DNA of 32,000 nucleotides. It comes from Cereibacter sphaeroides 2.4.1 (GTDB lineage: Bacteria; Pseudomonadota; Alphaproteobacteria; Rhodobacterales; Rhodobacteraceae). Below the pieces are notes generated by a model. It did no database searches, was not told where the DNA came from, and worked only from the letters and a program-made list of their open reading frames with translations. The stretch spans positions 1,680,001-1,712,000 of the forward strand of contig NC_007493.2 in the NCBI RefSeq assembly GCF_000012905.2, written 5' to 3'. Of the stretch, positions 5,867-26,467 are shown piece after piece. Position 1 is the stretch's first letter; every line of letters begins with the position of its first letter. A program made the translations under genes and the position numbers.

Positions 5867-8188
5867 TTACCTCTTACGCGGGTCTTTGCTGATAATTGCG
5901 TTTCTTTGGGGCTGCGTTTTCGAATACTGATTCAAGCCCTGTTGTGTGATTTTGACTGAGGTTTGAGCAGACTTATCTAGAATGCGAGCTTCAAGATCTG
6001 GACTCATGCTCAGGTCGAGGTGAACACGTTGAGCAGCCCCGCCCATCATGTTCATGGACTCACGGTTGCTGAGAACCTGTGCCCCACGCGGCATGGACAC
6101 AAGCTCAGGGCCTCTTTCTCCAACCCATGAGAGTCCGCCTCTCCAGCCACTCGTGCCATTCGCATTGGCTCCTATTGCTCCTCCTCCAAGGATCCCGGCA
6201 ACACTTCCCCAGAAGCCACCGCCACCGCCAAGACTGCCGAGGAATGACGTGAATGCCCCGTTAGCGAGGTTACTTGCCAGAGAAGCGAAGAAGTTGCTTA
6301 GGGCCGATCTTGCGCTCTCCGATCCAGTGACGATGCTGGAGAACATGTCTCCCAATTGTCCCTTGAACCTATCGATTGCAGCATCTTGAGTTTTCAACCG
6401 TTCTAGCTCAGTCACCAAACCGGCAATCTTCTGCCCCTGTAGAGACGATGCAGTTACCCCGGCCTGACGTTGGGCATTCCAAATTTGCTCGGCTAGAGCG
6501 GTCTGGCCCATAGTATTTTTCAGTTGCTCGATATCGCCATTAAGAGTCCTGATGGTCTCTTGGTATTTCGAAAGCTTCGCAGAACCACCACCGGCAGCAT
6601 CCCCGCCCGAGATATCGCCAATTCCTTTCGTATTCAGATCAGGCAGTTTCGGAACGTTCGGATTTGAACCGTTTGCATCACGTTCGGCTTTAGTCTTGGC
6701 CTGCATAGCGTCGTAGTCCGACCGGGCTTTAGCCATTGCATCGGCAAATCCTTGACCGGAATCGACCAACGAAGATGCGCCATTCGTAACAGCGGACATT
6801 CCTTCTGACATTGTGGCCTTTGCCCCGGCAATTAATGCCTTAGCATCACCGGACATTTCGACGCCAATGTTGATTTTCGGAATTTTATCACCGGGTTTGA
6901 TAGCGTTTATGCCATCGATTGCTATGTTGATGCCCTGCCCGATTTTCATCATCAGCTTGGCGAATGCAGCTTCCGCTTGACCGAAGGCATAGGCAAACGC
7001 GCCATAGATCACTTTGCCGACGCCCTCGAACATCGAACCAATGGCGCTCAGACCTGTCTTGATCGTGTTTTCGACTCCGGTCCAAATTGTTCCGGCAAGT
7101 TGCATGGCATTAGATACCCCGCCAACGGAGTCCACAAGGTTGAGCGTCTGATAAACGATTTCGCCGATGACGACGGCTAGGGCTCCCCATCCAGTCCGCA
7201 CCAATGCTGCCCGCATGAGCGTCAGAGCCCCGGCAAGGCCAAGGGTGTAGACACTGGCGGCAAGTGTCGCAGCCCCGTAGGCGGCCAGCCCAACGGCTCC
7301 TGTAGCGGCGTAAGTGGCAATCCGACCGATGTTGTCTGCCAGAACCATGAGGCTGGATCCAACTGCCTGCCCCATCGTGGCAAAGACCGTGCGGATACCG
7401 TCTGCCTGAGCTAGGAAGACCTGAAGACGAGTGGAGACTTCGGCCAGCGGGCCAGCGAACCCGGACACGAAGATGTTGCCCCATCCCGAGACAATCCCTC
7501 CGATACCCGACAGGTTTGCCGAGAAGGTCGATAGGTTTTTGATAACTTGATCGGATAGAATTTGACCGGTCGAAAGCAGTTCTGCTTTGATCCGTTTGAA
7601 TTCGGCACCGTTATTTGCCAGAAGAGGAGCGAGCTTCGAAGCCTCGTCGGATAGACTCTCCCACAAGAAAACCTGAGTTTCTAGAGGAAGGTTCATTCCC
7701 TCCATTAAGCTTTGGATCTCGATCAGACGTTGCTCGGGCGGCAGCCTGAGTATATCCTTTGCGGAAACTCCCTGCGGCTTCGCAACCATTTCCATGAAGT
7801 CCTTCATCTCACCACCACCGGTAGCGAGATATTCACCGAGTCGATCTGCGCCATCCTTCAGAATGTCGGACACCTTGTCTGCCTCGATACCATATCGTTT
7901 CGCAGCGCTAGTAAGGGCTTGATATCCCTCAGTAGAAAGACCTAATGCATTGGCCTGACGTTCAACTTCCTTGGCGTTGTTCGCCATCAAAACCGTGCCA
8001 GTAGTTACGGCAGCACCCATCGCCGTTCCAATCGCCGCAGCGGCCTTGCCGATCTTCGCAGCAGTTTTGGTAAACGAGGATTCAAGGTTCTTCGCACCTT
8101 TTACAGCCTTGCGGCCACCGGCCTCGAAAGCCGCTGTATCGAGTGAAAGGTTCGCCCGTAAAGCCCCGACTACTGATGCTAAAGACAT
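5867..8188 (-). CDS. Tail tape measure protein, 773 aa
   Basis: It sits after the chaperone pair. The central part has long Ala/Gly-rich hydrophobic segments, with coiled-coil stretches and a Gly-rich C-terminal region (GGGGFWGSVAGILGGGAIGANANG). Confidence 0.9.
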   Translation of the reverse strand: MSLASVVGALRANLSLDTAAFEAGGRKAVKGAKNLESSFTKTAAKIGKAAAAIGTAMGAAVTTGTVLMANNAKEVERQANALGLSTEGYQALTSAAKRYGIEADKVSDILKDGADRLGEYLATGGGEMKDFMEMVAKPQGVSAKDILRLPPEQRLIEIQSLMEGMNLPLETQVFLWESLSDEASKLAPLLANNGAEFKRIKAELLSTGQILSDQVIKNLSTFSANLSGIGGIVSGWGNIFVSGFAGPLAEVSTRLQVFLAQADGIRTVFATMGQAVGSSLMVLADNIGRIATYAATGAVGLAAYGAATLAASVYTLGLAGALTLMRAALVRTGWGALAVVIGEIVYQTLNLVDSVGGVSNAMQLAGTIWTGVENTIKTGLSAIGSMFEGVGKVIYGAFAYAFGQAEAAFAKLMMKIGQGINIAIDGINAIKPGDKIPKINIGVEMSGDAKALIAGAKATMSEGMSAVTNGASSLVDSGQGFADAMAKARSDYDAMQAKTKAERDANGSNPNVPKLPDLNTKGIGDISGGDAAGGGSAKLSKYQETIRTLNGDIEQLKNTMGQTALAEQIWNAQRQAGVTASSLQGQKIAGLVTELERLKTQDAAIDRFKGQLGDMFSSIVTGSESARSALSNFFASLASNLANGAFTSFLGSLGGGGGFWGSVAGILGGGAIGANANGTSGWRGGLSWVGERGPELVSMPRGAQVLSNRESMNMMGGAAQRVHLDLSMSPDLEARILDKSAQTSVKITQQGLNQYSKTQPQRNAIISKDPRKR

Positions 8189-8229
8189 TATTGAAATCCT
8201 CGCGAAAAAATTACTCCATTATGTATGAC

Positions 8230-8260
8230 CAAACAAAAAGCCCCGGATCTACTCCGAGGC
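8230..8260 (-). terminator. Weak terminator-like hairpin overlapping the chaperone stop codon
   Basis: The minus strand reads gcctcgga-gtaga-tccggggc (one mismatch) followed by tttttgttt. It may attenuate transcription ahead of the tape measure gene. Confidence 0.35.
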
Positions 8261-8925
8261 TTCTGCAATTACGTTTCCAGCCTTAATTAGATGATCGTTA
8301 TATCGCTTCATATCTGCGATCAACTTCTTATTGCGCTCTTTAGGTGAAAGCTTTGGCTTCAATTCCCTATGGCGGATGAGCAGTGTTTCGAGTTTGGGCA
8401 TCTTATCAACACGGCTTAGGACGGCGGTGTAATAAGCAGTTCGAATATCGTTATCGTATTGCGTTTCTGCTTTCTTCCTTGCTGCCTTCATGAAGATCGA
8501 AAATGTTACCTGATTCAAATTCCAGAATGCATCGGGAGTATTTGGATAGGAAATGAGATAGGTCTCATACAGATCAGCGATTGTTGGCGGGGTTACTTCG
8601 CCTTCTTTCTCCCCGCCTTCGGCTTTCCCGCCTCTGCCGCAGCCTCATCGATATCCTTGTTGATCGAAGCAACCAGATCTTCGAAATAGATGGCCAACAT
8701 TTCCCCTGCTTCTTCTAGGGTCACTTCGGGTTGATTCACCTTGAGACCGCAATAAAGCAGCGTTCGCCATTCAGTTACATTAAGCTGGCCCGATGCCATG
8801 CGGGCCATAACTTCGAGTCCGTTCGATCCCTCAACCATGGACTCGTATTCCGCAAGAGCATTGAAGTTCAAATCAAGCTTCATGCCGTTCTGGAATGTGT
8901 AAATACCTTTGCTATTCGTTTTCAT
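8249..8925 (-). CDS. Tail assembly chaperone G-T-like fusion made by a -1 programmed frameshift (predicted 225 aa)
   Basis: The downstream frame is open from 8644 but has no credible start; the track start at 8518 is a TTG with no RBS. It overlaps the end of the 8593..8925 frame in the -1 register. The extension contains PDAFWNLNQVTF, reminiscent of the rcc01693/phiE125 gp8 family motif P-x-x-F-W-x-L. Confidence 0.7.
8593..8925 (-). CDS. Tail assembly chaperone, G-like product (GTA g10-like family)
   Basis: 110 aa, located between the tail tube and tape measure genes. The pattern LDLNFNALAEYESMV...GQLNVTEWRTLLYCGLK resembles the gene-transfer-agent-family chaperone. Confidence 0.8.
   Translation of the reverse strand: MKTNSKGIYTFQNGMKLDLNFNALAEYESMVEGSNGLEVMARMASGQLNVTEWRTLLYCGLKVNQPEVTLEEAGEMLAIYFEDLVASINKDIDEAAAEAGKPKAGRKKAK
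8623..8629 (-). promoter_or_regulatory. Slippery heptamer G GGA AAG for the -1 ribosomal frameshift
   Basis: The minus strand reads gcg gga aag ccg in the zero frame. It is the same heptamer used by lambda G/GT and lies within the 8596-8644 frame overlap. Confidence 0.7.
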
Positions 8926-9051: not shown

Positions 9052-9537
9052 TCAATGCACCCTCCTAAATTCGCCATGAAGTCTCATCGCTGCAGCTTCC
9101 CGGACTGCAATCGCCGTCTCGATATCATCAAAACGCCCCAAATAGTGATTGACGCCTCCACGACCGATAGAGGCTACGAATTTGTTTCCTGACTTAAAGA
9201 TGCCAGCGTAACCGCTTTTGTTACTCGCATAAATTTTTCTATTCAGATTGTTCTCTTCAACTCTCGCCAGTCGGATATTCGATAGGCGGTTGTCACTCGG
9301 ATCTCCCGAAATGTGATCGATGGTCATACCTTTGGGGATGTCGCCGTAATGCATCTTCCAAATTAGACGATGAGCGTAATAGAGCACCCCATCACAATAG
9401 ACCTGCCAGTAGCCTCGTTTATTGATGCAGCCTGCATGACCTGATTGCCCTTTGCGGATCAGATATCCGGTTTCGGAATCGTATTTGAAAACTTCATTCA
9501 GGCGTTCTTGGCTCGGCAATGGTTTTGATTTAAGCAT
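9052..9537 (-). CDS. Free-standing HNH homing endonuclease with a C-terminal AP2-type DNA-binding domain
   Basis: The HNH_3-like core is YAHRLIWKMHYGDIPKGMTIDHISGDPSDNRLSNIRLA. The AP2-like region is SGYAGIFKSGNKFVASIGRGGVNHYLGRFDDIETAIAVREAAAMRLHGEF. It is inserted between the tail tube and chaperone genes. Confidence 0.85.
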   Translation of the reverse strand: MLKSKPLPSQERLNEVFKYDSETGYLIRKGQSGHAGCINKRGYWQVYCDGVLYYAHRLIWKMHYGDIPKGMTIDHISGDPSDNRLSNIRLARVEENNLNRKIYASNKSGYAGIFKSGNKFVASIGRGGVNHYLGRFDDIETAIAVREAAAMRLHGEFRRVH

Positions 9538-14677: not shown

Positions 14678-16264
14678 TTAAGCAAATAGAGCTTTTCGCT
14701 TGGGCTTTGGCTTGTTATCTGGATCAGCAAGCATTCCGGCGAGCATCGCTAACGTAACAGCGCCGTCAATTCGTCTTGTCGAAGTATGCTTGATGAATTT
14801 GCGGTTGTTTGAAGTGTCCGAAACAACTTTCACGTTTGCCATGCACATATTCATGACGGGGTTGTTCCCATGGCGAATTTTGCCATCCAGAATTAAACGC
14901 TCCAACTCGTTAATTCCGATGCCCATAGAAACGAAGCCCTGCCCATAAGAAACCATGTGCTCGTCAATCCATCGCTCATCAAAACCACAATCAATCATGT
15001 CGCGCTTGAAGTATTTTATTTTGTAACGGTCAAAGGCTACCTTCTGGACATTGGCGTTATCCGCAATCTCCTTAAGCTTGGCAGCGACATCCTTATATTG
15101 GATGGTTCTTCCTTGGCTTAAATGGATTAGTCCACCCTTGGCCCAAATGTCATAAGGAACCTTATCACTTCTCGATTTATCCTCTATTCCCTCATCGGGA
15201 AGCCAAAAGAATGGATGAACGTGAAGCAAACCATTCTCGTCTTTATGTGCTAAAGTAAGAGAAGTGAGATCTCGGGTTTCAGATAGATCAAGGCCAAGCC
15301 AAACATCCTTTCCATGCCATTCTTCGGGATTATCCTTGCCTTCATCCCAAACATCTTTTGAAATGAATGGAGCGTTGACTTCGATCCTCTGGTTGAGGGT
15401 GTAGTTGCGGAAATCCGCAGCACGGGCAGGCATCCGTGCGGCCTCGGCCTGCATTTGCTTGAGTTCCTTGCGGTTCACAAAGGAATTCCATGCAGGATGC
15501 GAGACAGCTAGGGCTTCTTCTGAGAACGGATCGATATTCATCGGACACGAATAGAGCTTAAGAACCTTGGTCGGATCTGCCCCGGTTGCGGCGTCATCGA
15601 TCAACTGACTAAGAAGGTCATTGTCAGTCGGAGCCTGCGTAGAGATCACGAGGGTAAGCGGGTTTGCCTGAGCCGCAGTGGCAAGCTCCAAGGCTTCGTA
15701 GAGCGGATCTACTGGCCCTCTCACCTGCCCTAGCTCATCGTGGATCACGAGGCACGGACTCAGCCCTTGAGCCGTTCCAGCATCCTTGGAGAGAGCCCTA
15801 TACTCTGTCCCTAGCTCGGGCACCTTCAGCCGCTTACTAGTCTCCACAATCCGAACAAAACGCGATATACGCGGACTCATCCTGATCATCTTGACTGCCA
15901 GTTTGAACAACTCCGCAGCTTGATCCCTGCTTCGGGCTGCACTGTATAGTTGCGAGTTGGGCAAGGCTTCTCGACCTACCAGATGCAACAGCATCAGAGC
16001 GGCACAGAGCGTTGTCTTCGCAGCCTTACGGGGCATCGAAATAATAGCCCGACGAGTTCCAGCCGGATTGTCATAGATCGAACGAATGATATCCTTCTGA
16101 AAGTCCACAAGCCTGAATGGCTTACCAACGTCCTTACCTTCTGGAATAAACAGGTTCGACTCAATCCACTTGATATTCTTTTCTGCCCTAGACAGTTTCG
16201 GCTTAGGCGGAATGACGGGTTGAGCGGACGAGAGAACGGGTAAAGATTGATCACTCATCGTCAT
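14678..16264 (-). CDS. Terminase large subunit
   Basis: 528 aa. It has a Walker A-like PRKAAKTT and a Walker B-like CLVIHDELGQ, plus a C-terminal nuclease-type region. It overlaps the TerS stop. Confidence 0.92.
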   Translation of the reverse strand: MTMSDQSLPVLSSAQPVIPPKPKLSRAEKNIKWIESNLFIPEGKDVGKPFRLVDFQKDIIRSIYDNPAGTRRAIISMPRKAAKTTLCAALMLLHLVGREALPNSQLYSAARSRDQAAELFKLAVKMIRMSPRISRFVRIVETSKRLKVPELGTEYRALSKDAGTAQGLSPCLVIHDELGQVRGPVDPLYEALELATAAQANPLTLVISTQAPTDNDLLSQLIDDAATGADPTKVLKLYSCPMNIDPFSEEALAVSHPAWNSFVNRKELKQMQAEAARMPARAADFRNYTLNQRIEVNAPFISKDVWDEGKDNPEEWHGKDVWLGLDLSETRDLTSLTLAHKDENGLLHVHPFFWLPDEGIEDKSRSDKVPYDIWAKGGLIHLSQGRTIQYKDVAAKLKEIADNANVQKVAFDRYKIKYFKRDMIDCGFDERWIDEHMVSYGQGFVSMGIGINELERLILDGKIRHGNNPVMNMCMANVKVVSDTSNNRKFIKHTSTRRIDGAVTLAMLAGMLADPDNKPKPKRKALFA

Positions 16265-16637
16265 CTTCCCATGGCTTGAACGAGGAAGCCCTTGCCTCGG
16301 GAGACTCTTTCGATGATCTAAGTGATTGATTGGAAATCCGAAGCTTTGTTGCGAGGGAAGATACCGCCCTATTTTCGCGGTCCAGCATCGCCGTAAGCTT
16401 GTTCAACAGTTTCGAGAATTCGATAATATCGTCAATCTTGCGATTGTCTTTGGCTTCTCTAATGAGACCGGCAACGTAATCAGCTTGGACGACATGACGG
16501 CAGAAAGCCACGAGTGAATCCCGTTGCAGATCCGTAATCCATCCATCTTCCAGACTGTCTAAGATGCGGCACCAAACCTCCAATTCATCATCCGAAAAGT
16601 CATTTGGCGGAATGAGTGTCTTTTTGTTGTTTTCCAT
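16251..16637 (-). CDS. Terminase small subunit (P27-like)
   Basis: I take the start as the ATG at 16637 (MENNKKTLIPPNDFSDDELEVW...). The track start at 16691 is a TTG. Its position upstream of TerL and its helical character fit the P27 family. Confidence 0.7.
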   Translation of the reverse strand: MENNKKTLIPPNDFSDDELEVWCRILDSLEDGWITDLQRDSLVAFCRHVVQADYVAGLIREAKDNRKIDDIIEFSKLLNKLTAMLDRENRAVSSLATKLRISNQSLRSSKESPEARASSFKPWEDDDE

Positions 16638-16894
16638 TATTGTTGATTCCCAAATAGCAATCTCCCGGTATGTAGGGAATTTGGGAGTCAAGCCGCTTAT
16701 CGGGATCTATGGCAAAAAAAGGAAAAAACTGCCCGTTTAAAACTCGTCACTACCATGCGCGGGAACCCTGTGAAAGGGAAAATCGAATCGACCTCCCCCC
16801 GGTCAAAAATGATTCGAAAATGTCAATTGAAATCGGATTTTTCTTTGCCTTCCGATCAAATAAATCTGCGAGAGAATCGTTTGGCAGATTGCGG

Positions 16895-16929
16895 AAAATG
16901 AAAAGACCGGACCTTAATTGATCCGGTCT
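16895..16929 (-). terminator. Rho-independent terminator upstream of the packaging/late operon
   Basis: The minus strand reads agaccgga-tcaattaagg-tccggtct followed by tttcatttt, directly after the stop at 16955. Confidence 0.65.
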
Positions 16930-16954
16930 TGTGCAAATGCTGTTGATGATCAGA

Positions 16955-17266
16955 TCACTTTTCGGCTTTTAGTTCCTCAAGCAATTTCTCATGCTTCTCC
17001 TTTGCCTTCTCGATACCCCGAACCGCATCCGGGATTGAAAAAAGAATATCACTCCTTACCTCGCGGATGAGACTTTCAAGCTTATCCTCACAATCAAGAA
17101 CTTCCCGTTGAGCTTTGCGAATTTCTTCCAGCTTCAATGCACGACTGCATTTCGCATTCAGAGTCTCATATGCTTGGTCGGTGTTCGCAGCATGAAGTTC
17201 AACTTCATCCAAGATATCAGTCAGGGCTTTTGCAATAGCTTCCTTGTTTCGGATTTCCATTTTCAT
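16955..17266 (-). CDS. Hypothetical coiled-coil protein
   Basis: 103 aa. The sequence is Glu/Lys-rich and helical. No family was recognised. Confidence 0.5.
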   Translation of the reverse strand: MKMEIRNKEAIAKALTDILDEVELHAANTDQAYETLNAKCSRALKLEEIRKAQREVLDCEDKLESLIREVRSDILFSIPDAVRGIEKAKEKHEKLLEELKAEK

Positions 17267-17319
17267 TTTCTCCTTTATGTGTGTGTTGTAATGTTATTTA
17301 GTGTTTCGTTGATTTCCGG

Positions 17320-17826
17320 TCATCGCAGTTGGGCAAGTCTCAAATTGTATTTCGCAGTAGCCTGACAGTAGGCTTCATGGGCCTCTTCGGGAGTATCGAA
17401 TATTCCGAGACGCTTCTTCTTCCCATGCCTTGCGACGATTGCAGCAAAGCGATTGCTAACCTTCTCGACTCCCTGTCCATATGGGTTGACATTCATCAGA
17501 CGGTTCAAACTGTTGTCTGAATGTGTAACTGCCCTGAGATTTTCGATCCGGTTATTAAGTCTGTCGCCGTCTTTATGATCGATAACGAGGTTAGAAATAT
17601 CGACGTCTGGATTGTGCATCTTGAAGATGATGCGATGGGCATAGAATAGCGAACCCATCATATGAACCTGTCGATATCCGAGACTCCTGTTAATCGACCC
17701 CGCTGGACGATCCGCACTCTTGCGACTATTATTGAGATTCTTCCAATATATTTGCCCATCTTCATCATAACGAAAAAGCGCATGTAATTTTTCGGATGAT
17801 GGGAGGTCTTTCGTTTTGAATGACAT
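17320..17826 (-). CDS. Second free-standing HNH homing endonuclease with an AP2-type domain, a paralogue of 9052..9537
   Basis: The HNH core is FYAHRIIFKMHNPDVDISNLVIDHKDGDRLNNRIENLRAVTHSDN. The AP2-like region is GVEKVSNRFAAIVARHGKKKRLGIFDTPEEAHEAY. The architecture matches 9052..9537. Confidence 0.85.
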   Translation of the reverse strand: MSFKTKDLPSSEKLHALFRYDEDGQIYWKNLNNSRKSADRPAGSINRSLGYRQVHMMGSLFYAHRIIFKMHNPDVDISNLVIDHKDGDRLNNRIENLRAVTHSDNSLNRLMNVNPYGQGVEKVSNRFAAIVARHGKKKRLGIFDTPEEAHEAYCQATAKYNLRLAQLR

Positions 17827-17844
17827 TGTGACTCCATGATGTAG

Positions 17845-17879
17845 AATGAAAATAGGCAGACCAATTGAATGATCTGCCT
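17845..17879 (-). terminator. Terminator-like hairpin between the HNH and HNH-AP2 genes
   Basis: The minus strand reads aggcaga-tcattcaattgg-tctgcct followed by attttcatt. Confidence 0.5.
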
Positions 17880-17907
17880 GAATTTGAAATTGAAATTTGG
17901 ATATGGA

Positions 17908-18294
17908 TTAGAGGCTGAATGACTTAGGCTTGAAGTATTCTCGATTACGCTCGGATATTACTTGTTTCCAATCCATTTCCGGGATTGGCCAGCCGGTATC
18001 ATAATCAATGATAGGATCAAATCCGATTAGCCCGTTACTCTCACGTTGCGTTTTCGATCTATGGCAGTCCTTACAAAGCATCCAGAGATTGCTTAGATCA
18101 TCCGTTCCACCACTGTTGACGTTTTGAAGATGGTCGCAGTCTGAGGCCAAGACGATCCTGCCTGTAAGCATGAAACAGCGGACGCATATTCCTTGATCTC
18201 GATTGCGGACGATATCCCGGTTCTTCCGGTAAGCCGCAGTCACCTTGCGCTTTGAACTACTCCAATTGGATTGCTTGCGGTTTGTCATCGCCAT
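17908..18294 (-). CDS. Terminase-associated HNH endonuclease (HK97 gp74-like role)
   Basis: 128 aa containing CVRC...CDHLQNVNSGGTDDLSNLWMLCKDCHRSKT. It lies upstream of TerS/TerL, as in cos-type HK97-like phages. Confidence 0.85.
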   Translation of the reverse strand: MAMTNRKQSNWSSSKRKVTAAYRKNRDIVRNRDQGICVRCFMLTGRIVLASDCDHLQNVNSGGTDDLSNLWMLCKDCHRSKTQRESNGLIGFDPIIDYDTGWPIPEMDWKQVISERNREYFKPKSFSL

Positions 18295-18649
18295 TAGTCA
18301 TAATCGGAAGATGTGTTGCGGTGATCTTGTTCGCGGAAATCGGTCCATCAATGATATTTGGTCCGCGCGGGTTGATGTGGTCGTTGATGCGCGCCAGCAC
18401 GTCGGCCAGATAGGCCTGTGGGTCGAGGCCGCTCAGTTTCGCGCTCTCAGCCTCATCGTCTAGGAGAGTGTTCAACGCTTCCCCTACTGCATCGGCTGGT
18501 GTTGGATGAATGGTTGAATACCGAACGCCATTGGCCATCGCTATCCAACCAGACTCACAATAACAAATCAGGAATTCGCCTTTTGTAATCTCGCGAACCT
18601 CTCTCATGAGATCCGCAAGATGGTGTTGATCGATCTTATCGGGTTGCAT
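18257..18649 (-). CDS. Hypothetical protein carrying an IS66-transposase C-terminal-like segment
   Basis: 130 aa. Residues ~69-96 (AKLSGLDPQAYLADVLARINDHINPRG) resemble the conserved C-terminus of IS66-family transposases. That segment coincides with a local GC-rich patch. Confidence 0.5.
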   Translation of the reverse strand: MQPDKIDQHHLADLMREVREITKGEFLICYCESGWIAMANGVRYSTIHPTPADAVGEALNTLLDDEAESAKLSGLDPQAYLADVLARINDHINPRGPNIIDGPISANKITATHLPIMTNGDDKPQAIQLE

Positions 18650-19097
18650 CGTAGACTTGATCGCTGATCTCGTTTGAGACGCCGCGAACCCTCATGGATG
18701 CAGAACGGATGCGTAAAGCTTCGAAAATCTTGTTACGCAAGGCATCATCGGCATTTTGCTGGAACGTGAGGATCTTCTTAATGGATGGGGTAGGATCGAA
18801 GTTCGGCAGGATACCCGCGATTTGAGCATTGGTAAGGATTCTAATTTCTTTTTGAAGGTTATCGATCTCGCTACGGATGAGTGATCGAATGACGATATCT
18901 TCGATCTTGCGCCATTCTCCATGGGCATAGATGAAAAAGGCTTTATGCATAGTGTCAAAGCGGATTGATCCTGCATGATCGGTCATGATGCGGTCGGCAA
19001 TGCCCTTAATCGAGACCGGGCAGTCGATGGCCTTTGAGACTTGGGCAGCGGTGTAATTCGTGCCGCATTTCGCATTAATTTTTTGGTGATCTAGCAT
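18636..19097 (-). CDS. Hypothetical protein
   Basis: 153 aa, first gene of the minus-strand block after the 19.1-19.6 kb gap. No family was recognised with confidence. Confidence 0.55.
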   Translation of the reverse strand: MLDHQKINAKCGTNYTAAQVSKAIDCPVSIKGIADRIMTDHAGSIRFDTMHKAFFIYAHGEWRKIEDIVIRSLIRSEIDNLQKEIRILTNAQIAGILPNFDPTPSIKKILTFQQNADDALRNKIFEALRIRSASMRVRGVSNEISDQVYDATR

Positions 19098-19133
19098 TGT
19101 TTTTTTCCCTGTGTGTTGGTGTTGTTATTATTT

Positions 19134-19274
19134 TCAGATGAGAAGGATTAGGGCGATGTAAGCTTTGTGGGCGAACATGAAGGCCCATGAGGCAGCTAAT
19201 AGAGCCTCGATAGGATTTGCCGTTGCCTTGTCCGAGATTGAGCGTGTGACTGTTTCAATAAGACTGGATGGCAT
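19134..19274 (-). CDS. Possible 46-aa small protein with a hydrophobic C-terminus (below the track cutoff)
   Basis: My own translation is MPSSLIETVTRSISDKATANPIEALLAASWAFMFAHKAYIALILLI. GAAGGA lies 6 nt upstream of the ATG at 19274. Confidence 0.3.
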   Translation of the reverse strand: MPSSLIETVTRSISDKATANPIEALLAASWAFMFAHKAYIALILLI

Positions 19275-19500
19275 GGCAAATCCTTCGGTTAATGGTTACT
19301 GTTACGAAAATGAGGGAAGCGCCATTACGCCTGCATTATGAAATGGCTTATGACTTCGGCGGCGATAAACGCCTTTCGCTTTCCTCATGAATGTATTTAG
19401 TAATCCGAGGATGCCGAAATTGTCGTTTCAGACGTTCGGATGGAAATTTATTTGAGGAAATGAATTGATGTTGCGTAATGGCAACAATGTGCAATGGGGA

Positions 19501-19542
19501 CAAAAAGAAGCCGGGTCTTACGGATTCATCATCCTGCCCGGC
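19501..19542 (-). terminator. Rho-independent terminator of the DUF2971-like gene
   Basis: The minus strand reads gccggg...(inner ggat/atcc stem)...cccggc followed by ttcttttt. Confidence 0.6.
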
Positions 19543-19619
19543 CAGTCACACACGGAGATTCCGATTGACGCAATGCTAAAACATCAACCGTGCTTTATTT
19601 AGGGGATCGGAAATTTGAG

Positions 19620-20552
19620 TTAGCGCCTAAGAGGGATTTCAGATACCTTCACTCGGAGTTGAGGGTTGTGATAGTGCTCGCTTGTCATAACCTGAATGAG
19701 CGCATCACTTATAACGTCGGGAAATGCCGTTGGTCCGACGATAATGTGATCCAAAATGTCGTTAAGGTTCAACGCGGAGTTGGCTCCATCTAGATTGAGG
19801 AGATAGACCTTCTGAGGGACTCCGCCAACCGAGGCGACCATACATGGAAGCTTGTTGTATGGGGTAGGACGGTGAATCACACGCCATTCCTGCTCCTCTT
19901 CGAATCCGGGATGTTTCGTGCTGAGAACTGCGGCATCCAGAGCACCAAAGAGATATGCTAGCGATAAGTCCTTATTCCCCTTCAATAGCTCAATATTTTC
20001 GGCAATGGATTCCATAACCTCCATGAATTCTCTACGGAACATGAAAGCGTCTGCGTAAAGAACCGGACTTAGTGTCGTGGCCGTGCTGTGATCGTTGAGC
20101 ACTTTTTCCCGATCAAATACCATAGCAACATTGGTGTTTCCACCATACGCTCGCCACATGGAGAGACGTCCAAGCTTATCCTCGCTAATAGCTCCGCCAT
20201 TAGGTCCATGCTCACTCAAGCATGTCAGGTAGGTATCATGCAAATCGGTAGGCATTGCATAACGGATCATGATGCTGTTGAATGCTGTCGGGTGGATCTC
20301 GTTAACAAGGTTCGCAAATTGCTTTCCGACCGTATCAGAGTCCAAAACCTTTAGGAGACAATTCAGGCCATGTTCAATTTCATTGAAATCATTCATCACG
20401 GATGCATTCCGCAACCACACTGACTTGTTCTTCAATATCGAGACGGCGACTTCTGCACTTGTGTAATGTGCAAATTTCCTATCGTTATCACGGATTTTTT
20501 GCACCCGCTTATTATAATTGGGATAGAATATCTCTTGAATGTTCTTAGACAT
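19620..20552 (-). CDS. DUF2971-like protein (310 aa)
   Basis: I take the start as the ATG at 20552 (MSKNIQEIF...), which has GGAAG upstream. Recalled family motifs are present: FAHYTSAEVAVSILKNKSVWLRNASVMNDFNE, LSMWRAYGGNTNVAMVFD and KHPGFEEEQEWRVI. Confidence 0.75.
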   Translation of the reverse strand: MSKNIQEIFYPNYNKRVQKIRDNDRKFAHYTSAEVAVSILKNKSVWLRNASVMNDFNEIEHGLNCLLKVLDSDTVGKQFANLVNEIHPTAFNSIMIRYAMPTDLHDTYLTCLSEHGPNGGAISEDKLGRLSMWRAYGGNTNVAMVFDREKVLNDHSTATTLSPVLYADAFMFRREFMEVMESIAENIELLKGNKDLSLAYLFGALDAAVLSTKHPGFEEEQEWRVIHRPTPYNKLPCMVASVGGVPQKVYLLNLDGANSALNLNDILDHIIVGPTAFPDVISDALIQVMTSEHYHNPQLRVKVSEIPLRR

Positions 20553-20635
20553 GGCTGCTTCCGGCTGCGGTTGATGGTCCCTTCTGCTTCGCAAGGGCGA
20601 GGGCCAGCGGTCAAGCGTCAAGGGGCCTGTGAGGC

Positions 20636-20820
20636 ACTATGCGGCGGCGGCGGGGCACGGAACTGGCGTGGGGGGACGAGCGGAACGAGGGGGGCAAAGG
20701 ATTGGCGGAATGAGGGACGAGGGAACGAAGCGCAAGCGAAGTGACTGAGGATCGAATGCAGACGTTGACCGAATGAAGAAACGGAGCGGAACGCGGAGTG
20801 ACTGAATGAAAGGCAACGAT
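20636..20820 (+). other. Strand-asymmetric purine tract
   Basis: A hand count gives 133 of 180 nt as purines on the plus strand at 20641-20820, and T is rare. GGAACG, GAATG and AGTGACTGA recur, with about 11 GGA triplets and several G4-6 runs. Confidence 0.8.
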
Positions 20821-20830
20821 GTATCAATCA

Positions 20831-21431
20831 TGAGATCGGAACATGAGTCTGCTCTCGAATAGAGGTTGAGATCAGGATTTAAGACAAAGTAAACATTTTT
20901 GGTATTCTTAAGTGATTGATTTTATTGAATAAATCAAGGGTGTCATATGGATTTGTTTTTCTTAAGAAAATCGTTTAAGTGATTGATTTTATTGATTTAT
21001 TAAGAAATGGATGAATCGAGATTTGATGTTCATGGTTCTTGAATGGGTATTCCATCAATGAACATGACGAGAAGTGCATTTTGGCGTAAGTGAGCGAAGC
21101 GAACGGAACGCCACCTTTAATCCACATAGAGGTTTTGAGATCAGGAAAGGAGTCTTCTTTCAGATAAAGGTTTGAGATCAGGAAAGGAGTCTTCTTTCAC
21201 ATAGAGGTTTTGAGATCGGATAAACCTTTAATCCACATAGAGGTTTTGAGATCGGATAAACTGCATCGAATAAGGGTCACCATAAGCAATCTGGCCGCAG
21301 GCCGCGCGAAGCGCCAATGGAATCGTTTATCCAATAGAGATTTGGACTCATACAGATCGGATAAATGATCTATGCTCAGATAGAGATTTTGAGATATCAA
21401 ATTTCATCAGATAAAGGTATTTTGGATCTTC
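20831..21431 (+). repeat. Iteron-like repeat family with core ATAGAGGTTTTGAGATC
   Basis: Copies start near 20858, 21123, 21161, 21198, 21234, 21332, 21377 and 21408. Four tandem units at 21123-21263 have a 36-38 bp period. In those units the inter-core segments are pairwise duplicated: aggaaaggagtcttcttt twice and ggataaac twice. Confidence 0.85.
20908..20995 (+). repeat. Two perfect 21-bp direct repeats in an AT-rich segment
   Basis: ttaagtgattgattttattga occurs at 20908-20928 and 20975-20995. The first copy also forms the inverted repeat ttgattt-N8-aaatcaa. Confidence 0.9.
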
Positions 21432-21504
21432 AAACTTCCTTTCTCTAACTCAGATCTCATCTGGACCTTATAGTTAAGATTCTGATTATAGCTCTATTTC
21501 TATA

Positions 21505-21525
21505 GGGGGACGAAACCCCCATTTT
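21505..21525 (+). terminator. Short GC hairpin plus T-run (terminator-like, plus strand)
   Basis: ggggg-acgaaa-ccccc is followed by attttc. The stem is only 5 bp, so this is weak. Confidence 0.3.
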
Positions 21526-21526
21526 C

Positions 21527-21623
21527 GTGGTGACGATCCCGGTGACGATGTGGTGACGATCCCGGTGACGATGTGGTGACGAAACCCAACCATAAGTTGT
21601 ATGGTGACGATGTGGTGACGAAA
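21527..21623 (+). repeat. Array of seven GGTGACGA octamers
   Basis: Octamers start at 21529, 21541, 21552, 21564, 21575, 21603 and 21614. The spacings are 12, 11, 12, 11, 28 and 11 bp. The 23-bp unit gtggtgacgatcccggtgacgat is exactly duplicated. Confidence 0.9.
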
Positions 21624-22097
21624 CCTCAATCCTCCTCTCCTCTATCCGAGCAACCATACAGCCTCGATTTTCATCCTTATCCATCAACGCCTTCGATGCC
21701 ATTTACGAAATTCCGAAATCCATACTGTCGAAAAGTAGAAGTGCGAGCGAAGAAACACTTCATCTGAGCATCGTTCCATTGCGACTATCCCACTCGAATC
21801 CTTTACTTACGCATTCACATTCGTTATGTGCGGCATCGGCCTTACGTCGGTATGAATTCGATGTTGCTATTTTGCAACGCCAATCCGAGAAATGAAAAAA
21901 TTCATGATCGGACGCCCGATTTTGGGCAGTCGGATTCCTATATACTTCGTCAAAGGTTGAGAGACTTTCGATTGTTATTTTTGCTTTGTGAAGGGATGGG
22001 GAAGTCATGAGCCTCATCCCGACACTACCGAAAAGCAATAACAATCCCCTCACAAATTGGAGACAGCAAAAATGATTTAATACGAAGAGGACTCCCT

Positions 22098-23216
22098 ATG
22101 TGCAACAGCAAATTCCCATTATTAGATACGTTGCTTCGCTGCCGTTACTGCGGCATTCAGCTTGAGGCGACGACAAACGGTCGGCAGCGCAAGTTTTGCT
22201 GCGATAGCCACCGCAAGATGTTCAATAAACGCCAATCAACATCGTCGCTAGCAAAGCTTTATAAGGCTCTTGCAACCGAATTTTTCTCCATCAACAACGC
22301 CCATGATCGGCAAACTCAAATAGAAGAATGGGGCATCAAATACGCTTACTGGTGCAATGGCGAAATGCCTTCATTCTTCAAAACGAAGGAAGCTCTTCTA
22401 AACTCATTCATTCCACGAGATAAAGTTTGGAACGAGGAAGGTAAGAACATCAATGTTAGGCTTGTCGCCCATCTTCGCGAGAAGGTTCCGAATAAACAGA
22501 TCTACGACCGTCTAGCAGTTGTTCGCGCGTTCGGTCTTGAACCGTCTGCATCGCTTCTGGCAGAGCAAGACGCCACTGAGACCCCTGCCCCATCCAAGCC
22601 CGTAGAACGGTCACAGAAGCCCTCTGATCCTGCCAGCCTCATCCATGCTCCGAAGCCCGCAAAGCCCGTCCAGCCCGCTCCTGTAGAGGCTGACGAGGAT
22701 GCAGAGCTTCTAGCTGCTTTCTCGGAATTTTTCGGCGATGACTCTGACCGTAAGGAACCGGCTCCGGTAGCCTGCGAAGAAACTCGTCCTGCGCCGATCA
22801 AGATCAATCCGTCCTACGCCGCCTGTGTGAAGATGTCGTTCGACAAGATCGGAGACATTCGCGAGGATTTCTTGTTTCGCAAATTCGAGGAGTATGATTA
22901 TCCGCTGAAAGCCACTCTATCCGCAATGGTCGAAGAAGGATCAATCATTAAGACGAAGAAAGCCGAAGGAGTATTCTATCGTATCGCCAACAACGAAGCG
23001 AACGAGAAAGCCGATTTTTGGGCTGAATGCCTTCGTTATGCCAAAGGCGACATGACTAAGGCGAGGGCTTCTTTTAGAAACGTTTTCGATCTTTGGCCGT
23101 CAAAGGAAATTCAAGAAACTTCAGTGGATTTGTCCATTGAACCAAGTGTTGCGAACGTCAGGCGGATTGAAGAAGGGCGCAAGCGGTATTTTGACGAAAA
23201 GAAGAAGGCTGCGTAA
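22098..23216 (+). CDS. Zinc-ribbon (FCS/TRASH-like) protein with a Pro/acidic linker and a winged-helix-like C-terminal region; candidate DNA-binding regulator or initiator
   Basis: 372 aa, with AGAGGA 6 nt upstream of the ATG. The N-terminus has CRYC-x17-CCDSH. The linker is PAPSKPVERSQKPSDPASLIHAPKPAKPVQPAPVEADEDAE. The C-terminus has DYPLKATLSAMVEEGSIIKTKKAEGVFYRI. Confidence 0.75.
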   Translation: MCNSKFPLLDTLLRCRYCGIQLEATTNGRQRKFCCDSHRKMFNKRQSTSSLAKLYKALATEFFSINNAHDRQTQIEEWGIKYAYWCNGEMPSFFKTKEALLNSFIPRDKVWNEEGKNINVRLVAHLREKVPNKQIYDRLAVVRAFGLEPSASLLAEQDATETPAPSKPVERSQKPSDPASLIHAPKPAKPVQPAPVEADEDAELLAAFSEFFGDDSDRKEPAPVACEETRPAPIKINPSYAACVKMSFDKIGDIREDFLFRKFEEYDYPLKATLSAMVEEGSIIKTKKAEGVFYRIANNEANEKADFWAECLRYAKGDMTKARASFRNVFDLWPSKEIQETSVDLSIEPSVANVRRIEEGRKRYFDEKKKAA

Positions 23217-23217
23217 C

Positions 23218-23523
23218 ATGCAAATCAAAATCATCGGCCCATCGATGGGACCGACGTTACCGGAAGGCTCAGTTCACGACGTCAACTTAACCGATCAATT
23301 CGGGCTAGGTGATATAATCGTCTTCCCCGATCCGAAGGACAGTTCCCGCCTTCTAGTCAAACGACTTCTGCGGAGCGAAGATAAAGGGCTATTCGTCATT
23401 GGGGATAACGTGAGAAACAGCCGAGATAGTCGCCATTTTGGCTTGATCGATCCGGCATCAGTTATCGGGAAAATCGAAATTTGCCGGTTTCCAAAATTCG
23501 TTAATTCAACCTCAACCAAATAA
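23218..23523 (+). CDS. Anchorless S26 (signal peptidase I-like) serine peptidase, 101 aa
   Basis: The ATG is 1 nt after the upstream TAA. All S26 boxes are present: GPSMGPTL (Ser), GDIIVF, VKRL (Lys) and GDNVRNSRDSRHFG. There is no N-terminal hydrophobic anchor. Confidence 0.8.
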   Translation: MQIKIIGPSMGPTLPEGSVHDVNLTDQFGLGDIIVFPDPKDSSRLLVKRLLRSEDKGLFVIGDNVRNSRDSRHFGLIDPASVIGKIEICRFPKFVNSTSTK

Positions 23524-23586: not shown

Positions 23587-23997
23587 ATGCTTAAATCAAT
23601 GACCCTCGCCATCTTCCTTGCCCTCGCCTCTACTTCGGCTCATGCGTTCCCGTTCCAATCTGAGACAATCGATTGTTCGAGCGAAGAAGCATTCAAGCAA
23701 TCTTTTGAGCGCATTGCCGAGAATGAGAGCAAAGTTGATACTACGGCAATCCTCTTCGGCACGATTCAAATGCTGTATGCGAACCTGCCGCCCGAACGTC
23801 GTGCCCGTCTATACGAAGGTGGAGGGCCAGTTGACAATCCGTTTCTAAATGTTGCTCAATCCCTCGAATATGCGTATGAGACCGATTTTCATCTGTCGCT
23901 TTCAGACGTGAAGGAATACGTCCGCGAGAATGGGCTTACCGAAATGGCTGCTCAGTGGATTGCCGAAAGGGAAGCCGAAGAAGCGAAGAAAGAGTGA
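23587..23997 (+). CDS. Secreted/periplasmic protein of unknown function with a Sec signal peptide
   Basis: I take the start at 23587 (MLKSMTLAIFLALASTSAHA|FPF), with GGAG 7 nt upstream. It has an A-X-A cleavage motif, and the mature part is helical and acidic. Confidence 0.7.
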   Translation: MLKSMTLAIFLALASTSAHAFPFQSETIDCSSEEAFKQSFERIAENESKVDTTAILFGTIQMLYANLPPERRARLYEGGGPVDNPFLNVAQSLEYAYETDFHLSLSDVKEYVRENGLTEMAAQWIAEREAEEAKKE

Positions 23998-24060: not shown

Positions 24061-24456
24061 TCAGTCTTTGTTGATCAACAGGTCTTCCATGTTGCCCCCC
24101 GCTTCAAGGTGAGCCTCCACCCACTTCGGTTTTCGTCCGCGTCCCGACCAAGTTTCCGAAGGGTTCTCCGGGTGCCGGTATTTCGGCGCTACAGGCTCGC
24201 GTTCTCCATCCTTGGACTTGCGGTTGTAACTCCGTTTCCCCGTCCCTTCCGACTTCGGCAGCATATCGCCGAAGAGATCCACGAGGTTGAAGCCCGACGA
24301 CTCCACGAGTTCCTTGATCTTGTCCTTAGCAGCTTGCTTTTCGCGAGCTTCATTGGCCCTAAGAGCTTCTTCGACATTCGCCCTCAGTTTGAGCAAATCA
24401 CCGCGCGGAACGTCAACGAGGTCTTCAAGGGTCGGCAGTCCGGTAGTCTTAGCCAT
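24061..24456 (-). CDS. H-NS / HvrA-family nucleoid-associated protein
   Basis: I take the start as the ATG at 24456 (MAKTTGLPTLEDL...), with AGGA upstream. It has an N-terminal coiled coil. The C-terminus carries the signature KYRHPENPSETWSGRGRKPKWVEAHLEAG. Confidence 0.9.
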   Translation of the reverse strand: MAKTTGLPTLEDLVDVPRGDLLKLRANVEEALRANEAREKQAAKDKIKELVESSGFNLVDLFGDMLPKSEGTGKRSYNRKSKDGEREPVAPKYRHPENPSETWSGRGRKPKWVEAHLEAGGNMEDLLINKD

Positions 24457-24510
24457 GGAGAATTCCTTTCCAAATCGCTGAGTCGGATATTGTTTCATTC
24501 GTTCGGAATG

Positions 24511-26259
24511 TCAATCGCTTTCGTATTCGTAGGCCGATCCCTCAACTCGTCTCGTCTTTTCACCCGCATAAACACTCACTCGAATATCATCAGGATTACT
24601 AGGATTCGGGACTACCGTCTGCACCGCACCATTGCGGAAAGTTACGATGAAGTAAGGATCATCCTTCAACCGTGATCCCGCATTCATTGCCGCAATGATC
24701 TTTTCGGCATCAGGATCTCCCGAAGCGCGCACAAGATCAATCGCCGGATCATCTTTGCGGATTTCACCATTCGGATAGACGTCAATGCGCTCAATGATCG
24801 ATTTGATACGATCCGCAAGCCTAATACGATTTTCCCCGCATGGATTTTGGAACGTCGAAATCAGGGATGCTAGTTCCTCGTCGGTCACGTTATCCGACTT
24901 GATCTTCGAAAGAGCATCATTCGATTCCTCGATAGATCGAACAAGATCATCCTTCTCGGCTTTCAATTCCCGAATGCGCTCCATGAAGATTTCCGCAAGA
25001 TCGGGAGCACCTTCGATCTTGATCAGATAATCCCGAATTCTCTCATCTGCCTTTCTAACTTTCTCTTCATTGACCGTTATCCGATCCGCAATCGTCTTTG
25101 CTTCGGACTTGCGCTTTGCACCTTCCAGAAGTCCCCTCAAATCAACATCCCGAACAAATGTCAGGAAGGAGCGTTCGAAGGCAGCGTAAGGGAGAGGTTT
25201 GCAATCGCATCCCGGACCATTAAAGCGGTTGAAGCATGTCAGGTAACGATGCGGAGGATTGCCCTTTACCCGTGATCCTTTCGACCGATGGCGCATCTTT
25301 GATCCGCAATAGCCGCAGAAAGCAACATGGGTGAAGATGTTCGATTGACCCTCTCCCCTTCTTCCCCCGGCAAGCAACCGCCCTCTCAGCGATGCTTGAA
25401 CAATGTCGAAAAGCTCTTCCTCGATTACGGGAGGGAAATATCCCGGAATAGGATCACCAGCCGGTTGACGCTTTCCACTGACATACTGCCCCGGCTGAAA
25501 TTCCCCGAGGACTGCACGATTGCGAAGCGTCTTGGAGACGAAAGCTTCGGCCCACAAAGCGCCCCTTCCGAATGTCGGAACCTTGTCGCGATTCAGTTCT
25601 TTGGTGATGAGGTTCGCACCTTTACCCGATGCCGAAGCTTCGAAGATGCGTTGAACGATTTTGGCCCGTTCCTTATCGATCAGGTAAGACTTGCGATCAA
25701 CGGACAGCTTAAGCCATGCAGGGCATTGACTCGACATTTTGACGCCATGTTCGGCAGCAAGCTTCCGCTTCTGCGACCAGTTGGCGAGACCACGAGTCGA
25801 TTTGATCTTAGACTCGTCATTGGACCGGATCATTACTGAAATGGCGTAGTAAATGCTTCCAACCTGATCTGACGATCCATCGTAAACCTGCCCATCCGAC
25901 AGGGTAACGATCTTCACCCCGGTCTTGAGAATGCGAGCAAACAGGGAAAATGCATCAAGGATCTTGTCTCGACTCAAACGGTCAAGGCTTTCGATGAGAA
26001 GGAACGATCCTGCCTCAATCTCTCCCGCCTCACACTCGGCAACAAATCGTCCGAGAGCCCCGGTAGTCAGGTTGTCCGACTTGAAGGCAGAGACCCCGAG
26101 ATCGGCAAGCTTGTAGTCATCGATAAGGTCAAGATCATGTTCGGCGGCATACTTCGCGGAAGCTTCTGCCTGCCGTCTAAATGAGTCCCCTTTGATCTGG
26201 ATAGCCGAGGACATACGAATGTAGCTGTATGCCTTCGGTCGGCTTGCTGGATTGGTCAT
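24511..26259 (-). CDS. Large serine recombinase (phage integrase)
   Basis: 582 aa. The resolvase-type N-terminus is [12 protein letters not shown]...GDSFRRQ. It also has a recombinase domain, a zinc ribbon (FCGYCGSKM...[15 protein letters not shown]) and a long coiled coil. It is the last gene before the GC shift. Confidence 0.93.
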
Positions 26260-26289
26260 GGCTCGGCCTCATCGTCTCTGATGGGGTCA

Positions 26290-26315
26290 CAATACCAATC
26301 ATGTTCAAGAAGATG
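26290..26315. other. Approximate prophage-host attachment junction (attL or attR)
   Basis: The loss of pirin similarity and the compositional switch coincide here. The exact crossover dinucleotide cannot be determined without attB/attP. Confidence 0.5.
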
Positions 26316-26467
26316 AAGGGGCCCACCATCTGCCTCCGGGCCGAGGGCAGCGCGCGGCGCACCTCGAAACCGCCGAGATCGCGGGCGCGCGGCACGATGA
26401 CGGTCTCGATGGCGTCGACGGCATCGCCGAGGGGGATGTCGGGGTCGAGGGCGGGGTTCCAGCTCAT
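26306..26467 (-). pseudogene. N-terminal fragment (~54 codons) of a host pirin-family gene, truncated by prophage insertion
   Basis: [53 protein letters not shown] matches the pirin N-terminus as I recall it. Similarity and high GC both end at ~26305, where the frame continues into AT-rich phage DNA ([11 protein letters not shown]...). Confidence 0.75.

Follow-up and report, generated by a model that had tools for sequence, protein, structure and literature searches.

A small prophage of Cereibacter sphaeroides 2.4.1 carries, in a ~1.5-kb non-coding gap, arrays of direct repeats and the least stable DNA of the whole element, upstream of the gene for an orphan 372-aa protein. Judged from its sequence, this region may be an iteron-type replication origin with the 372-aa protein as its initiator, a reading that we place first and hold tentatively. 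The prophage lies in the 32,000-nucleotide stretch of chromosome analysed here (NC_007493.2, positions 1,680,001 to 1,712,000; hereafter the window, in whose coordinates positions are given unless a related locus is named), and the gap (20553-22097) separates a leftward DUF2971 gene from the rightward 372-aa gene. The origin was ranked first because the region combines repeats, meltable DNA bearing IHF sites and an adjacent, controlled gene for a DNA-binding protein, and because the phage has no other replication gene. A first-pass annotation of this DNA had proposed a theta-type origin modelled on P1 oriR; its iterons, AT-rich tract and adjacent gene were borne out by our analysis, but the parts of the P1 analogy that concern Dam/GATC and DnaA boxes were not.

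Repeat arrays and an AT-rich stability minimum upstream of the 372-aa gene

In the databases searched, the gap and the 372-aa gene are co-inherited in three divergent lineages, C. sphaeroides/C. johrii, a Logan contig and C. changlensis, and the upstream non-coding architecture is common to all three. Below, L001 denotes the C. johrii locus, L002 the Logan contig and L004 the C. changlensis locus. The features of the gap and of the adjacent gene are as follows.

20613-20830, plus strand: G-rich, purine-rich, strand-asymmetric tract with short degenerate repeats, GAGCGGAACG and GCGRAGTGACTGA
20855-20873, plus strand: lone first core of the 37-bp family, TCGAATAGAGGTTGAGATC, left of the AT-rich tract
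20877-21060, no strand: AT-rich tract, candidate unwinding element, with two identical 21-bp direct repeats
21113-21262, plus strand: four tandem ~37-bp units with the core CACATAGAGGTTTTGAGATC
21283-21322, no strand: GC-rich block with two adjacent mini-hairpins (4-bp stem, 3-nt loop), near-identical in L002 and absent in L004
21293-21303: mini-hairpin GGCC-GCA-GGCC
21304-21314: mini-hairpin GCGC-GAA-GCGC
21328-21428, plus strand: three further cores of the iteron, more degenerate, with starts at 21328, 21376 and 21407
21467-21527, plus strand: most conserved non-coding block, CTTATAGTTAAGA...CTCTATTTCTATAGGGGGACGAAACCCCCATTTTCG
21529-21621, plus strand: seven GGTGACGA units with start spacings of 12, 11, 12, 11, 28 and 11
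21935-22097, plus strand: putative promoter region and structured 5' untranslated region (5'UTR) of the 372-aa gene
22098-23216, plus strand: gene for the orphan 372-aa protein, candidate iteron-binding initiator or regulator

The 37-bp family is one of three repeat systems in the gap. Its core, CA(C/G)ATA(G/A)AGGTTT(T)GAGATC, occurs in eight copies, all on the plus strand and four of them in tandem, in agreement with the first-pass annotation, which had counted at least eight. Seven of these are strict copies (starting at 20855, 21122, 21160, 21197, 21233, 21376 and 21407) and one, at 21328, is degenerate. Tandem Repeats Finder (TRF) detected a period of 37 with 3.5 copies at 21123-21253, and an ungapped 17-mer of the family, with up to three mismatches allowed, gave 4 matches in the window versus 0.09 expected. 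The tandem units have two types of spacer, AGGAAAGGAGTCTTCTTT, which contains a GANTC site, and GGATAAACCTTTAAT. Across lineages the GGTTT(T)GAGAT core is similar and its copy number is not. No variation in iteron copy number was seen within C. sphaeroides, where the region is identical to the window in four of five other records, the fifth (L006) lying outside the comparison.

The AT-rich stretch that had been noted beside the repeats is real: in a duplex stability computation, 20877-21004 was the least stable duplex of the whole 26.3-kb prophage, and the homologous tract is likewise the stability minimum in L001, L002 and L004. Inside it lie identical 21-bp direct repeats, TTAAGTGATTGATTTTATTGA (20908-20928 and 20975-20995), each of which holds a predicted IHF site with the perfect consensus AATCAATCACTTA on the minus strand (20909 and 20976). 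The IHF consensus has 5 matches in the window versus 1.1 expected. The 13-mer AATCAATCACTTA occurs a third time, unchanged, at 16319-16331, minus strand, within the small terminase gene terS; chance recurrence of an exact 13-mer is unlikely.

The conserved block at 21467-21527 ends in a hairpin, GGGGGACGAAACCCCC (21505-21520), after which comes an invariant TTTTCG, and the 11-bp array begins directly after this hairpin. All seven plus-strand copies of GGTGACGA in the window fall within 93 bp, both strands together hold 9 matches versus 0.93 expected window-wide, and a degenerate eighth unit lies inside the hairpin preceding the array. The position and period of the array are kept among the lineages and its sequence has changed, the unit being GGTGACGA(T) in the window, GCGTCGATCCT in L002 and GCGACGA(A/T) in L004. 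Neither the 37-bp nor the 11-bp motif was found at other places in the prophage, such as the region upstream of terS.

In the G-rich tract there are 48 G versus 14 C per 100 nt, with a GC skew of +0.33. This G>C asymmetry is among the strongest in every locus, and the position and composition of the tract are kept in all lineages, but not its sequence. Folding revealed no RNA structure in it, and a role as a CsrA/Rsm-type sponge RNA was rejected because the tract is unstructured. Mini-hairpin sequences of the GCGAAGC or GNA-triloop type, which are unusually stable as single-stranded DNA, are present at 21093-21099 as well as at 21293-21314. The pair that stands amid the iterons in the window and L002 might be either an inserted element or a signal for single-strand initiation. 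The GGTGACGA array, the IHF-consensus repeats, the G-rich tract, the GC-rich mini-hairpins and the structured 5'UTR had all been overlooked in the first-pass annotation.

Other explanations for the gap were also rejected. A hidden coding sequence was excluded by comparing similarity in all frames on both strands, which gave no consistent frame and indels that are not multiples of three. An attP site was excluded by position, as the region is internal to the prophage and the att sites of the serine integrase are at the prophage ends. No CtrA boxes (TTAA-N7-TTAA) were found.

The 372-aa protein and its structured leader

In the 372-aa protein, an N-terminal zinc ribbon (CxxC...C...H) and a conserved helical domain (1-160) are joined by a Pro-rich linker to a C-terminal part with a predicted winged helix (~236-298). 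Its identity to the two distant homologues, P0002 and P0003, is 77% and 53%, respectively, in the zinc ribbon, 74% and 58% in the helical domain, and 27% to each in the winged helix. This pattern is what would be expected from sequence if the winged helix set the DNA specificity and the N-terminal part contacted something conserved. In a sequence comparison of the three lineages, the divergence of the winged helix parallels the lineage-specific sequence of the 11-bp array.

Relatives of this protein are few. The cluster at 90% identity has 6 member sequences, and the exact protein sequence of the window is listed in 126 contig-index blocks; outside the cluster, L002 has a protein with 56% identity and L004 one with 38%. 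A word-indexed search of 5.8 billion proteins returned only 2 relatives, and an exhaustive HMMER search of 1.84 billion representatives added one further full-length relative and a 93-aa zinc-ribbon fragment. Scans of Genome Taxonomy Database (GTDB) genomes and IMG/VR with the protein gave no further relatives, and the conserved hairpin block had no match in GTDB genomes, IMG/VR or JGI metagenomes. GenBank phages and PLSDB plasmids gave no match by DNA or tblastn, and no work on this prophage, or on small RNAs or transcription start sites within it, was found in the literature. Between the window and L002, identity is 69-72% in the non-coding blocks, as compared to 74% in the conserved 5' part of the 372-aa gene.

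The leader of the gene is structured. Its hairpin at 21993-22020 carries compensatory changes in all lineages, and 13 of the 29 predicted pairs in the 5'UTR have changes on both sides among four sequences. The outer helix may mask the ribosome-binding site of the 372-aa gene. Only one sigma-70-like site was found, which is weak and not conserved. The loop is AGTAGCTA, with the palindrome TAGCTA, in L001, L002 and L004, and a different 10-nt loop in the window, although the 372-aa proteins of the window and L001 are 98% identical. The swap between these two loci may represent a difference in specificity or immunity.

In an alternative explanation, the repeats would be modules of one or more non-coding RNAs, for example a plus-strand transcript ending at the hairpin 21505-21520 and its U-run, with a function in immunity or copy control as for P4 CI RNA or plasmid antisense RNAs. 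The plus strand of 21100-21530 folds better than shuffled sequences (z = -3.1), its hairpin is conserved and terminator-like, several stems contain G-U type pairs, and the 5'UTR hairpin covaries, its loop being different in the window and L001, which are otherwise nearly identical. We nevertheless regard this explanation as quite improbable. Rfam searches were negative, both over the window at gathering thresholds and over 20400-22200 at E<=5. Outside the 5'UTR, consensus folding yielded a positive covariation term, and hence no support from covariation, and the GGGG/CCCC stem is invariant. In addition, the T-run is only 4 nt long, the iteron array is not kept in L004 and the purine tract is unstructured.

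A possible initiation scheme

From the observed repeats, stability minimum, conserved architecture and covariation of both the winged helix with the repeats and the 5'UTR with itself, we infer a scheme of binding, unwinding and replication in which the 372-aa protein would act as the initiator. The fast-evolving winged helix would read the lineage-specific 11-bp array (21529-21621), and the conserved GGTTT(T)GAGAT cores flanking the AT-rich tract would be read by the N-terminal zinc-ribbon domain or by a host factor. IHF would bend the AT-rich tract at its two consensus sites, the duplex would open at 20877-21004, and the host replisome would then be recruited via the conserved N-terminal domain. 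Expression of the 372-aa protein would be held down by the structured 5'UTR; in two relatives, a DnaA box is also present at the promoter.

Evidence that weighs against an origin

A number of results count against this interpretation, and several concern the protein itself. Sequence and profile searches gave no match to Pfam, PHROG, NCBIfam or PDB, so that it belongs to no known Rep family, and no NTPase, primase or HUH motif was recognisable when its sequence was read for motifs. AlphaFold models were confident only for residues ~235-300, corresponding to the winged helix, and poor elsewhere, with a pLDDT of ~48-49 for both the full protein and the N-terminal domain. Foldseek searches returned only generic winged helix-turn-helix proteins (AspA, ArsR/MarR, TubR), all at E>0.08. 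The covariation of domain and repeat rests on few events, because there are only three independent lineages. Among the repeats, the tandem 37-bp array is lineage-specific, L002 having two cores 37 bp apart and L004 scattered cores only, and 37 bp corresponds to ~3.5 helical turns, unlike the ~22-bp phasing of classical iterons. Finally, the element could be defective, or spread without autonomous replication, because recognisable lysis and repressor genes are lacking.

The GATC sites give no help to an origin either. The first-pass annotation had taken them to be clustered; its count of 10 in 20831-21460 is correct, but such clustering does not rise above what the phage has elsewhere, nor is it conserved. 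Across the prophage there are 7.9 GATC per kb, and 5.6% of 601-bp stretches of the prophage contain at least 10. Dinucleotide shuffles of 20831-21431 had 5.3 +/- 1.9 sites as compared to 9 observed, a number reached in 28 of 500 shuffles. Most of the sites in the region are part of the repeat unit, and the homologous region of L004 has only 4 in 1037 bp. In alphaproteobacteria, the cell-cycle methylase is CcrM, acting at GANTC, rather than the Dam/SeqA system; the hosts here are Cereibacter, which are alphaproteobacteria. Other 600-bp bins of the window are richer in GATC, with 13 (18601-19200), 15 (24601-25200) and 11 (25801-26400) sites, and host DNA has 10.7 per kb. The density of GANTC is 3.8 per kb in the prophage versus 0.9 per kb in host DNA.

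DnaA-like 9-mers had been reported to match the consensus at 7 or 8 of 9 positions. This holds for TAATCCACA (21118 and 21229; 8 of 9) and TTATCCAAT (21327; 7 of 9), but the three minus-strand copies of TTATCCGAT match at only 6 of 9. As had been cautioned, these sites are not independent, TAATCCACA being one site duplicated within the repeat. They are not enriched: 7 DnaA-like sites with up to one mismatch versus 4.6 expected in the window, and 3 with up to two mismatches versus 2.2 expected in the region. One perfect box, TTATCCACA, is present in each of L002 (9820-9828) and L004 (9828-9836), ~175 nt upstream of the gene and at the same position in both, within GACTTATCCACAGGCC. The window and L001 have no perfect TTATCCACA at that position, where it has been lost or replaced.

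Comparison with known systems and other roles for the arrays

The closest parallels in layout are pSC101 ori/repA and R6K gamma ori/pir, which have the same order of an AT-rich tract with an IHF consensus, same-orientation repeats and a binding-protein gene transcribed away from them. A DnaA box near the gene is a further likeness, found here in two relatives only. In contrast to these plasmids, the 372-aa protein does not belong to the double winged-helix initiators of the Rep_3/RepA type, the periods are 37 and 11-12 bp instead of ~22 bp, and two or three distinct arrays extend over 1.5 kb of an integrated phage. P1 oriR/RepA likewise combines iterons with an AT-rich stretch and a neighbouring initiator gene, but requires Dam-methylated GATC heptamers and DnaA boxes, whereas GATC is at background and not conserved here and the DnaA-like sites are non-significant. 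The SaPI ori/Rep system resembles the locus in its short iterons on both sides of an AT-rich region beside the initiator gene, and in a lineage specificity that matches a variable DNA-binding domain; SaPI Rep, however, is a helicase with an associated primase, and the 372-aa protein lacks an NTPase motif and has no sequence relationship to it. Lambda O shares a variable DNA-binding domain, a flexible linker and a partner-contact domain, and lambda ori a repeat array next to an AT-rich segment. The lambda origin is located within the O gene and depends on the helicase loader P; in the present locus the arrays lie upstream in non-coding DNA, and a P-like gene is absent.

For the 11-12-bp GGTGACGA array there are parallels in P2 Cox, 186 Apl and R1 ParR-parC, where winged-helix or small proteins coat 6-10 repeats spaced by one helical turn. 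Direct repeats phased at 11 bp and bound by winged-helix proteins are typical of the P2 Cox and 186 Apl switch regions, a resemblance that favours a role of the region as a transcriptional switch or a platform for counter-silencing. In that case, the 372-aa protein would be a master regulator (repressor or activator) that polymerises on the arrays and controls the divergent leftward (cargo, late) and rightward promoters, perhaps displacing an H-NS-like silencer encoded by the phage, with IHF assisting looping. The gap does lie between divergent transcription units, and since no CI/Cro-type repressor was found, the candidates for a regulator are limited to the 372-aa protein and the conserved H-NS gene of the phage. 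Controlled read-through is suggested by a C-rich (rut-like) leader on the leftward side and by a conserved terminator in the same direction, and a PrtN-type activator gene follows the homologue in L002. The geometry argues the other way: the arrays lie >300 bp from the putative 372-aa promoter and at least 0.6-1 kb from the start of the leftward gene, and the single sigma-70-like site is weak and not conserved. Cox and Apl arrays overlap switch promoters or att sites, and those of ParR lie upstream of parMR; no such partners or overlap are evident here. Moreover, neither repeat motif recurs elsewhere in the prophage, and a switch would leave the phage without an origin or initiator. On balance, we judge this switch to be rather unlikely but still the strongest rival of the origin.

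A role of the arrays in segregation, as a parC-like centromere, or in packaging, as terminase small-subunit sites accessory to cos or pac, appears highly improbable. Arrays of 11-bp direct repeats resemble R1 parC, and IHF sites occur in lambda cosB; the best, non-significant Foldseek matches of the 372-aa protein include the centromere binders AspA and TubR, and the 13-mer AATCAATCACTTA recurs unchanged within terS. Nevertheless, the 26-kb element encodes no ParA, ParM or TubZ-type NTPase and is integrated via a serine integrase. Its HNH, terS and terL genes (14678-18294), near which cos sites of the HK97 type are expected, are at least 3.9 kb to the left of the arrays, and variable cargo lies between the gap and the packaging genes.

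Prophage setting and gene content

The prophage to which the candidate origin belongs is a ~26.3-kb island of 48% GC in host DNA of ~68% GC, the DNA from ~26.5 kb on having 64-74% GC. It is integrated beside guaA in C. sphaeroides 2.4.1-type chromosomes, with identical copies at ~1.70 Mb of 3.19-Mb chromosomes, and guaA is also the neighbour of the relatives in C. johrii and C. changlensis. We place the left end of the prophage at the left edge of the window because a contig with the same tail-tip gene continues with a small reverse gene and then the host pirin gene; the whole prophage (~26.3 kb) thus lies within the window. The unseen left part that had been invoked as a possible source of early genes or a Dam gene does not exist. 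Genes and other features outside the gap are as follows.

9052-9537: HNH_3 gene among the tail genes
14678-16264: large terminase gene terL
16251-16691: small terminase gene terS
17320-17826 and 17908-18294: HNH genes
19098-19619, no strand: detached left part of the ancestral non-coding region, split off by insertion of the DUF2971 gene (19620-20552)
24061-24498, minus strand: H-NS-like gene, adjoining the serine integrase gene, which is followed by guaA
24511-26259, minus strand: serine integrase gene, at the right prophage end

The interval from 20552 to 444 is occupied by one leftward operon, which begins with the DUF2971 gene and encodes TerS, TerL, portal, S78 protease, HK97-type capsid, tail proteins and a tail-tip protein of 1205 aa. 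The 26.3 kb include complete sets of head, tail and packaging genes. In contrast, no gene for replication, lysis or a CI/Cro-type repressor could be recognised in the entire prophage, and no helicase, loader or primase was recognised among its genes. Downstream of the 372-aa gene are a stand-alone S26/S24 peptidase-like open reading frame without a helix-turn-helix (23121-23523) and a gene for a 136-aa secreted protein with a signal peptide (23587-23997), which has homologues in L001 and L004. Both are probably lysogenic-conversion genes.

The insertion of the DUF2971 gene is apparent from L001, in which 8046-8560 aligns with window 19098-19615 and is contiguous with the G-rich tract. At this junction L004 carries ~8 kb of cargo (DUF2441, Rap1a and others), and L002 has cargo genes that lack annotation, after which come a resolvase gene, a DUF3800 gene and type III restriction-modification genes. 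From these sequences, the junction appears to be a hot-spot at which defence or cargo genes are inserted. A conserved hairpin, GCCGGG...CCCGGC, followed by TTCTTTTTGT on the leftward strand (window 19502-19547, L004 776-820), resembles an intrinsic terminator that would separate the control/cargo region from the 153-aa, HNH and terminase genes, and hints at read-through (antitermination) control or insulation of the late genes.

The H-NS-like gene is kept in three lineages (window 24061-24498, L001 11950-12351, L004 12454-12834). Because the prophage has 48% GC in a host of ~68% GC and has no recognisable CI-type repressor, silencing of the prophage by its own xenogeneic silencer is a possibility, by analogy with CgpS in Corynebacterium CGP3. 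A still broader reading, which we consider unlikely, would make the region a single ~2-kb non-coding hub for both replication and the lysis-lysogeny decision. The orphan protein, with its two modules of zinc ribbon and swappable winged helix, would work this hub, the phage H-NS-like silencer would replace a CI-type repressor on its own AT-rich genome, and the G-rich tract might act via transcription, as an R-loop or Rho-dependent element.

Implications

An iteron-type control region is of a known kind. What is new here is the orphan zinc-ribbon/winged-helix protein, the three repeat systems spread over 1.5-2 kb, the phage H-NS gene and the occurrence of such a very small, low-GC prophage in a high-GC alphaproteobacterium. 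If the hub were real, its control logic would be undescribed for any phage of Alphaproteobacteria, and the 372-aa protein would again be a new initiator family. If the transcriptional alternative were true, the locus would represent a prophage governed by its own H-NS-like silencer and a counter-silencer.

Should the region be an origin with the 372-aa protein as initiator, this protein would found a new family of initiators, to which nothing among ~15 billion predicted proteins is detectably related, and the propagation of a 26-kb phage without recognisable replication genes would be explained. The locus would also supply a compact module for replication, derived from a prophage in a genetic-model organism, and possibly a new replicon for Rhodobacterales. 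With its conserved layout, lineage-specific repeats and swappable winged helix, it would be a ready system in which to study how the specificity of an initiator for its site evolves.

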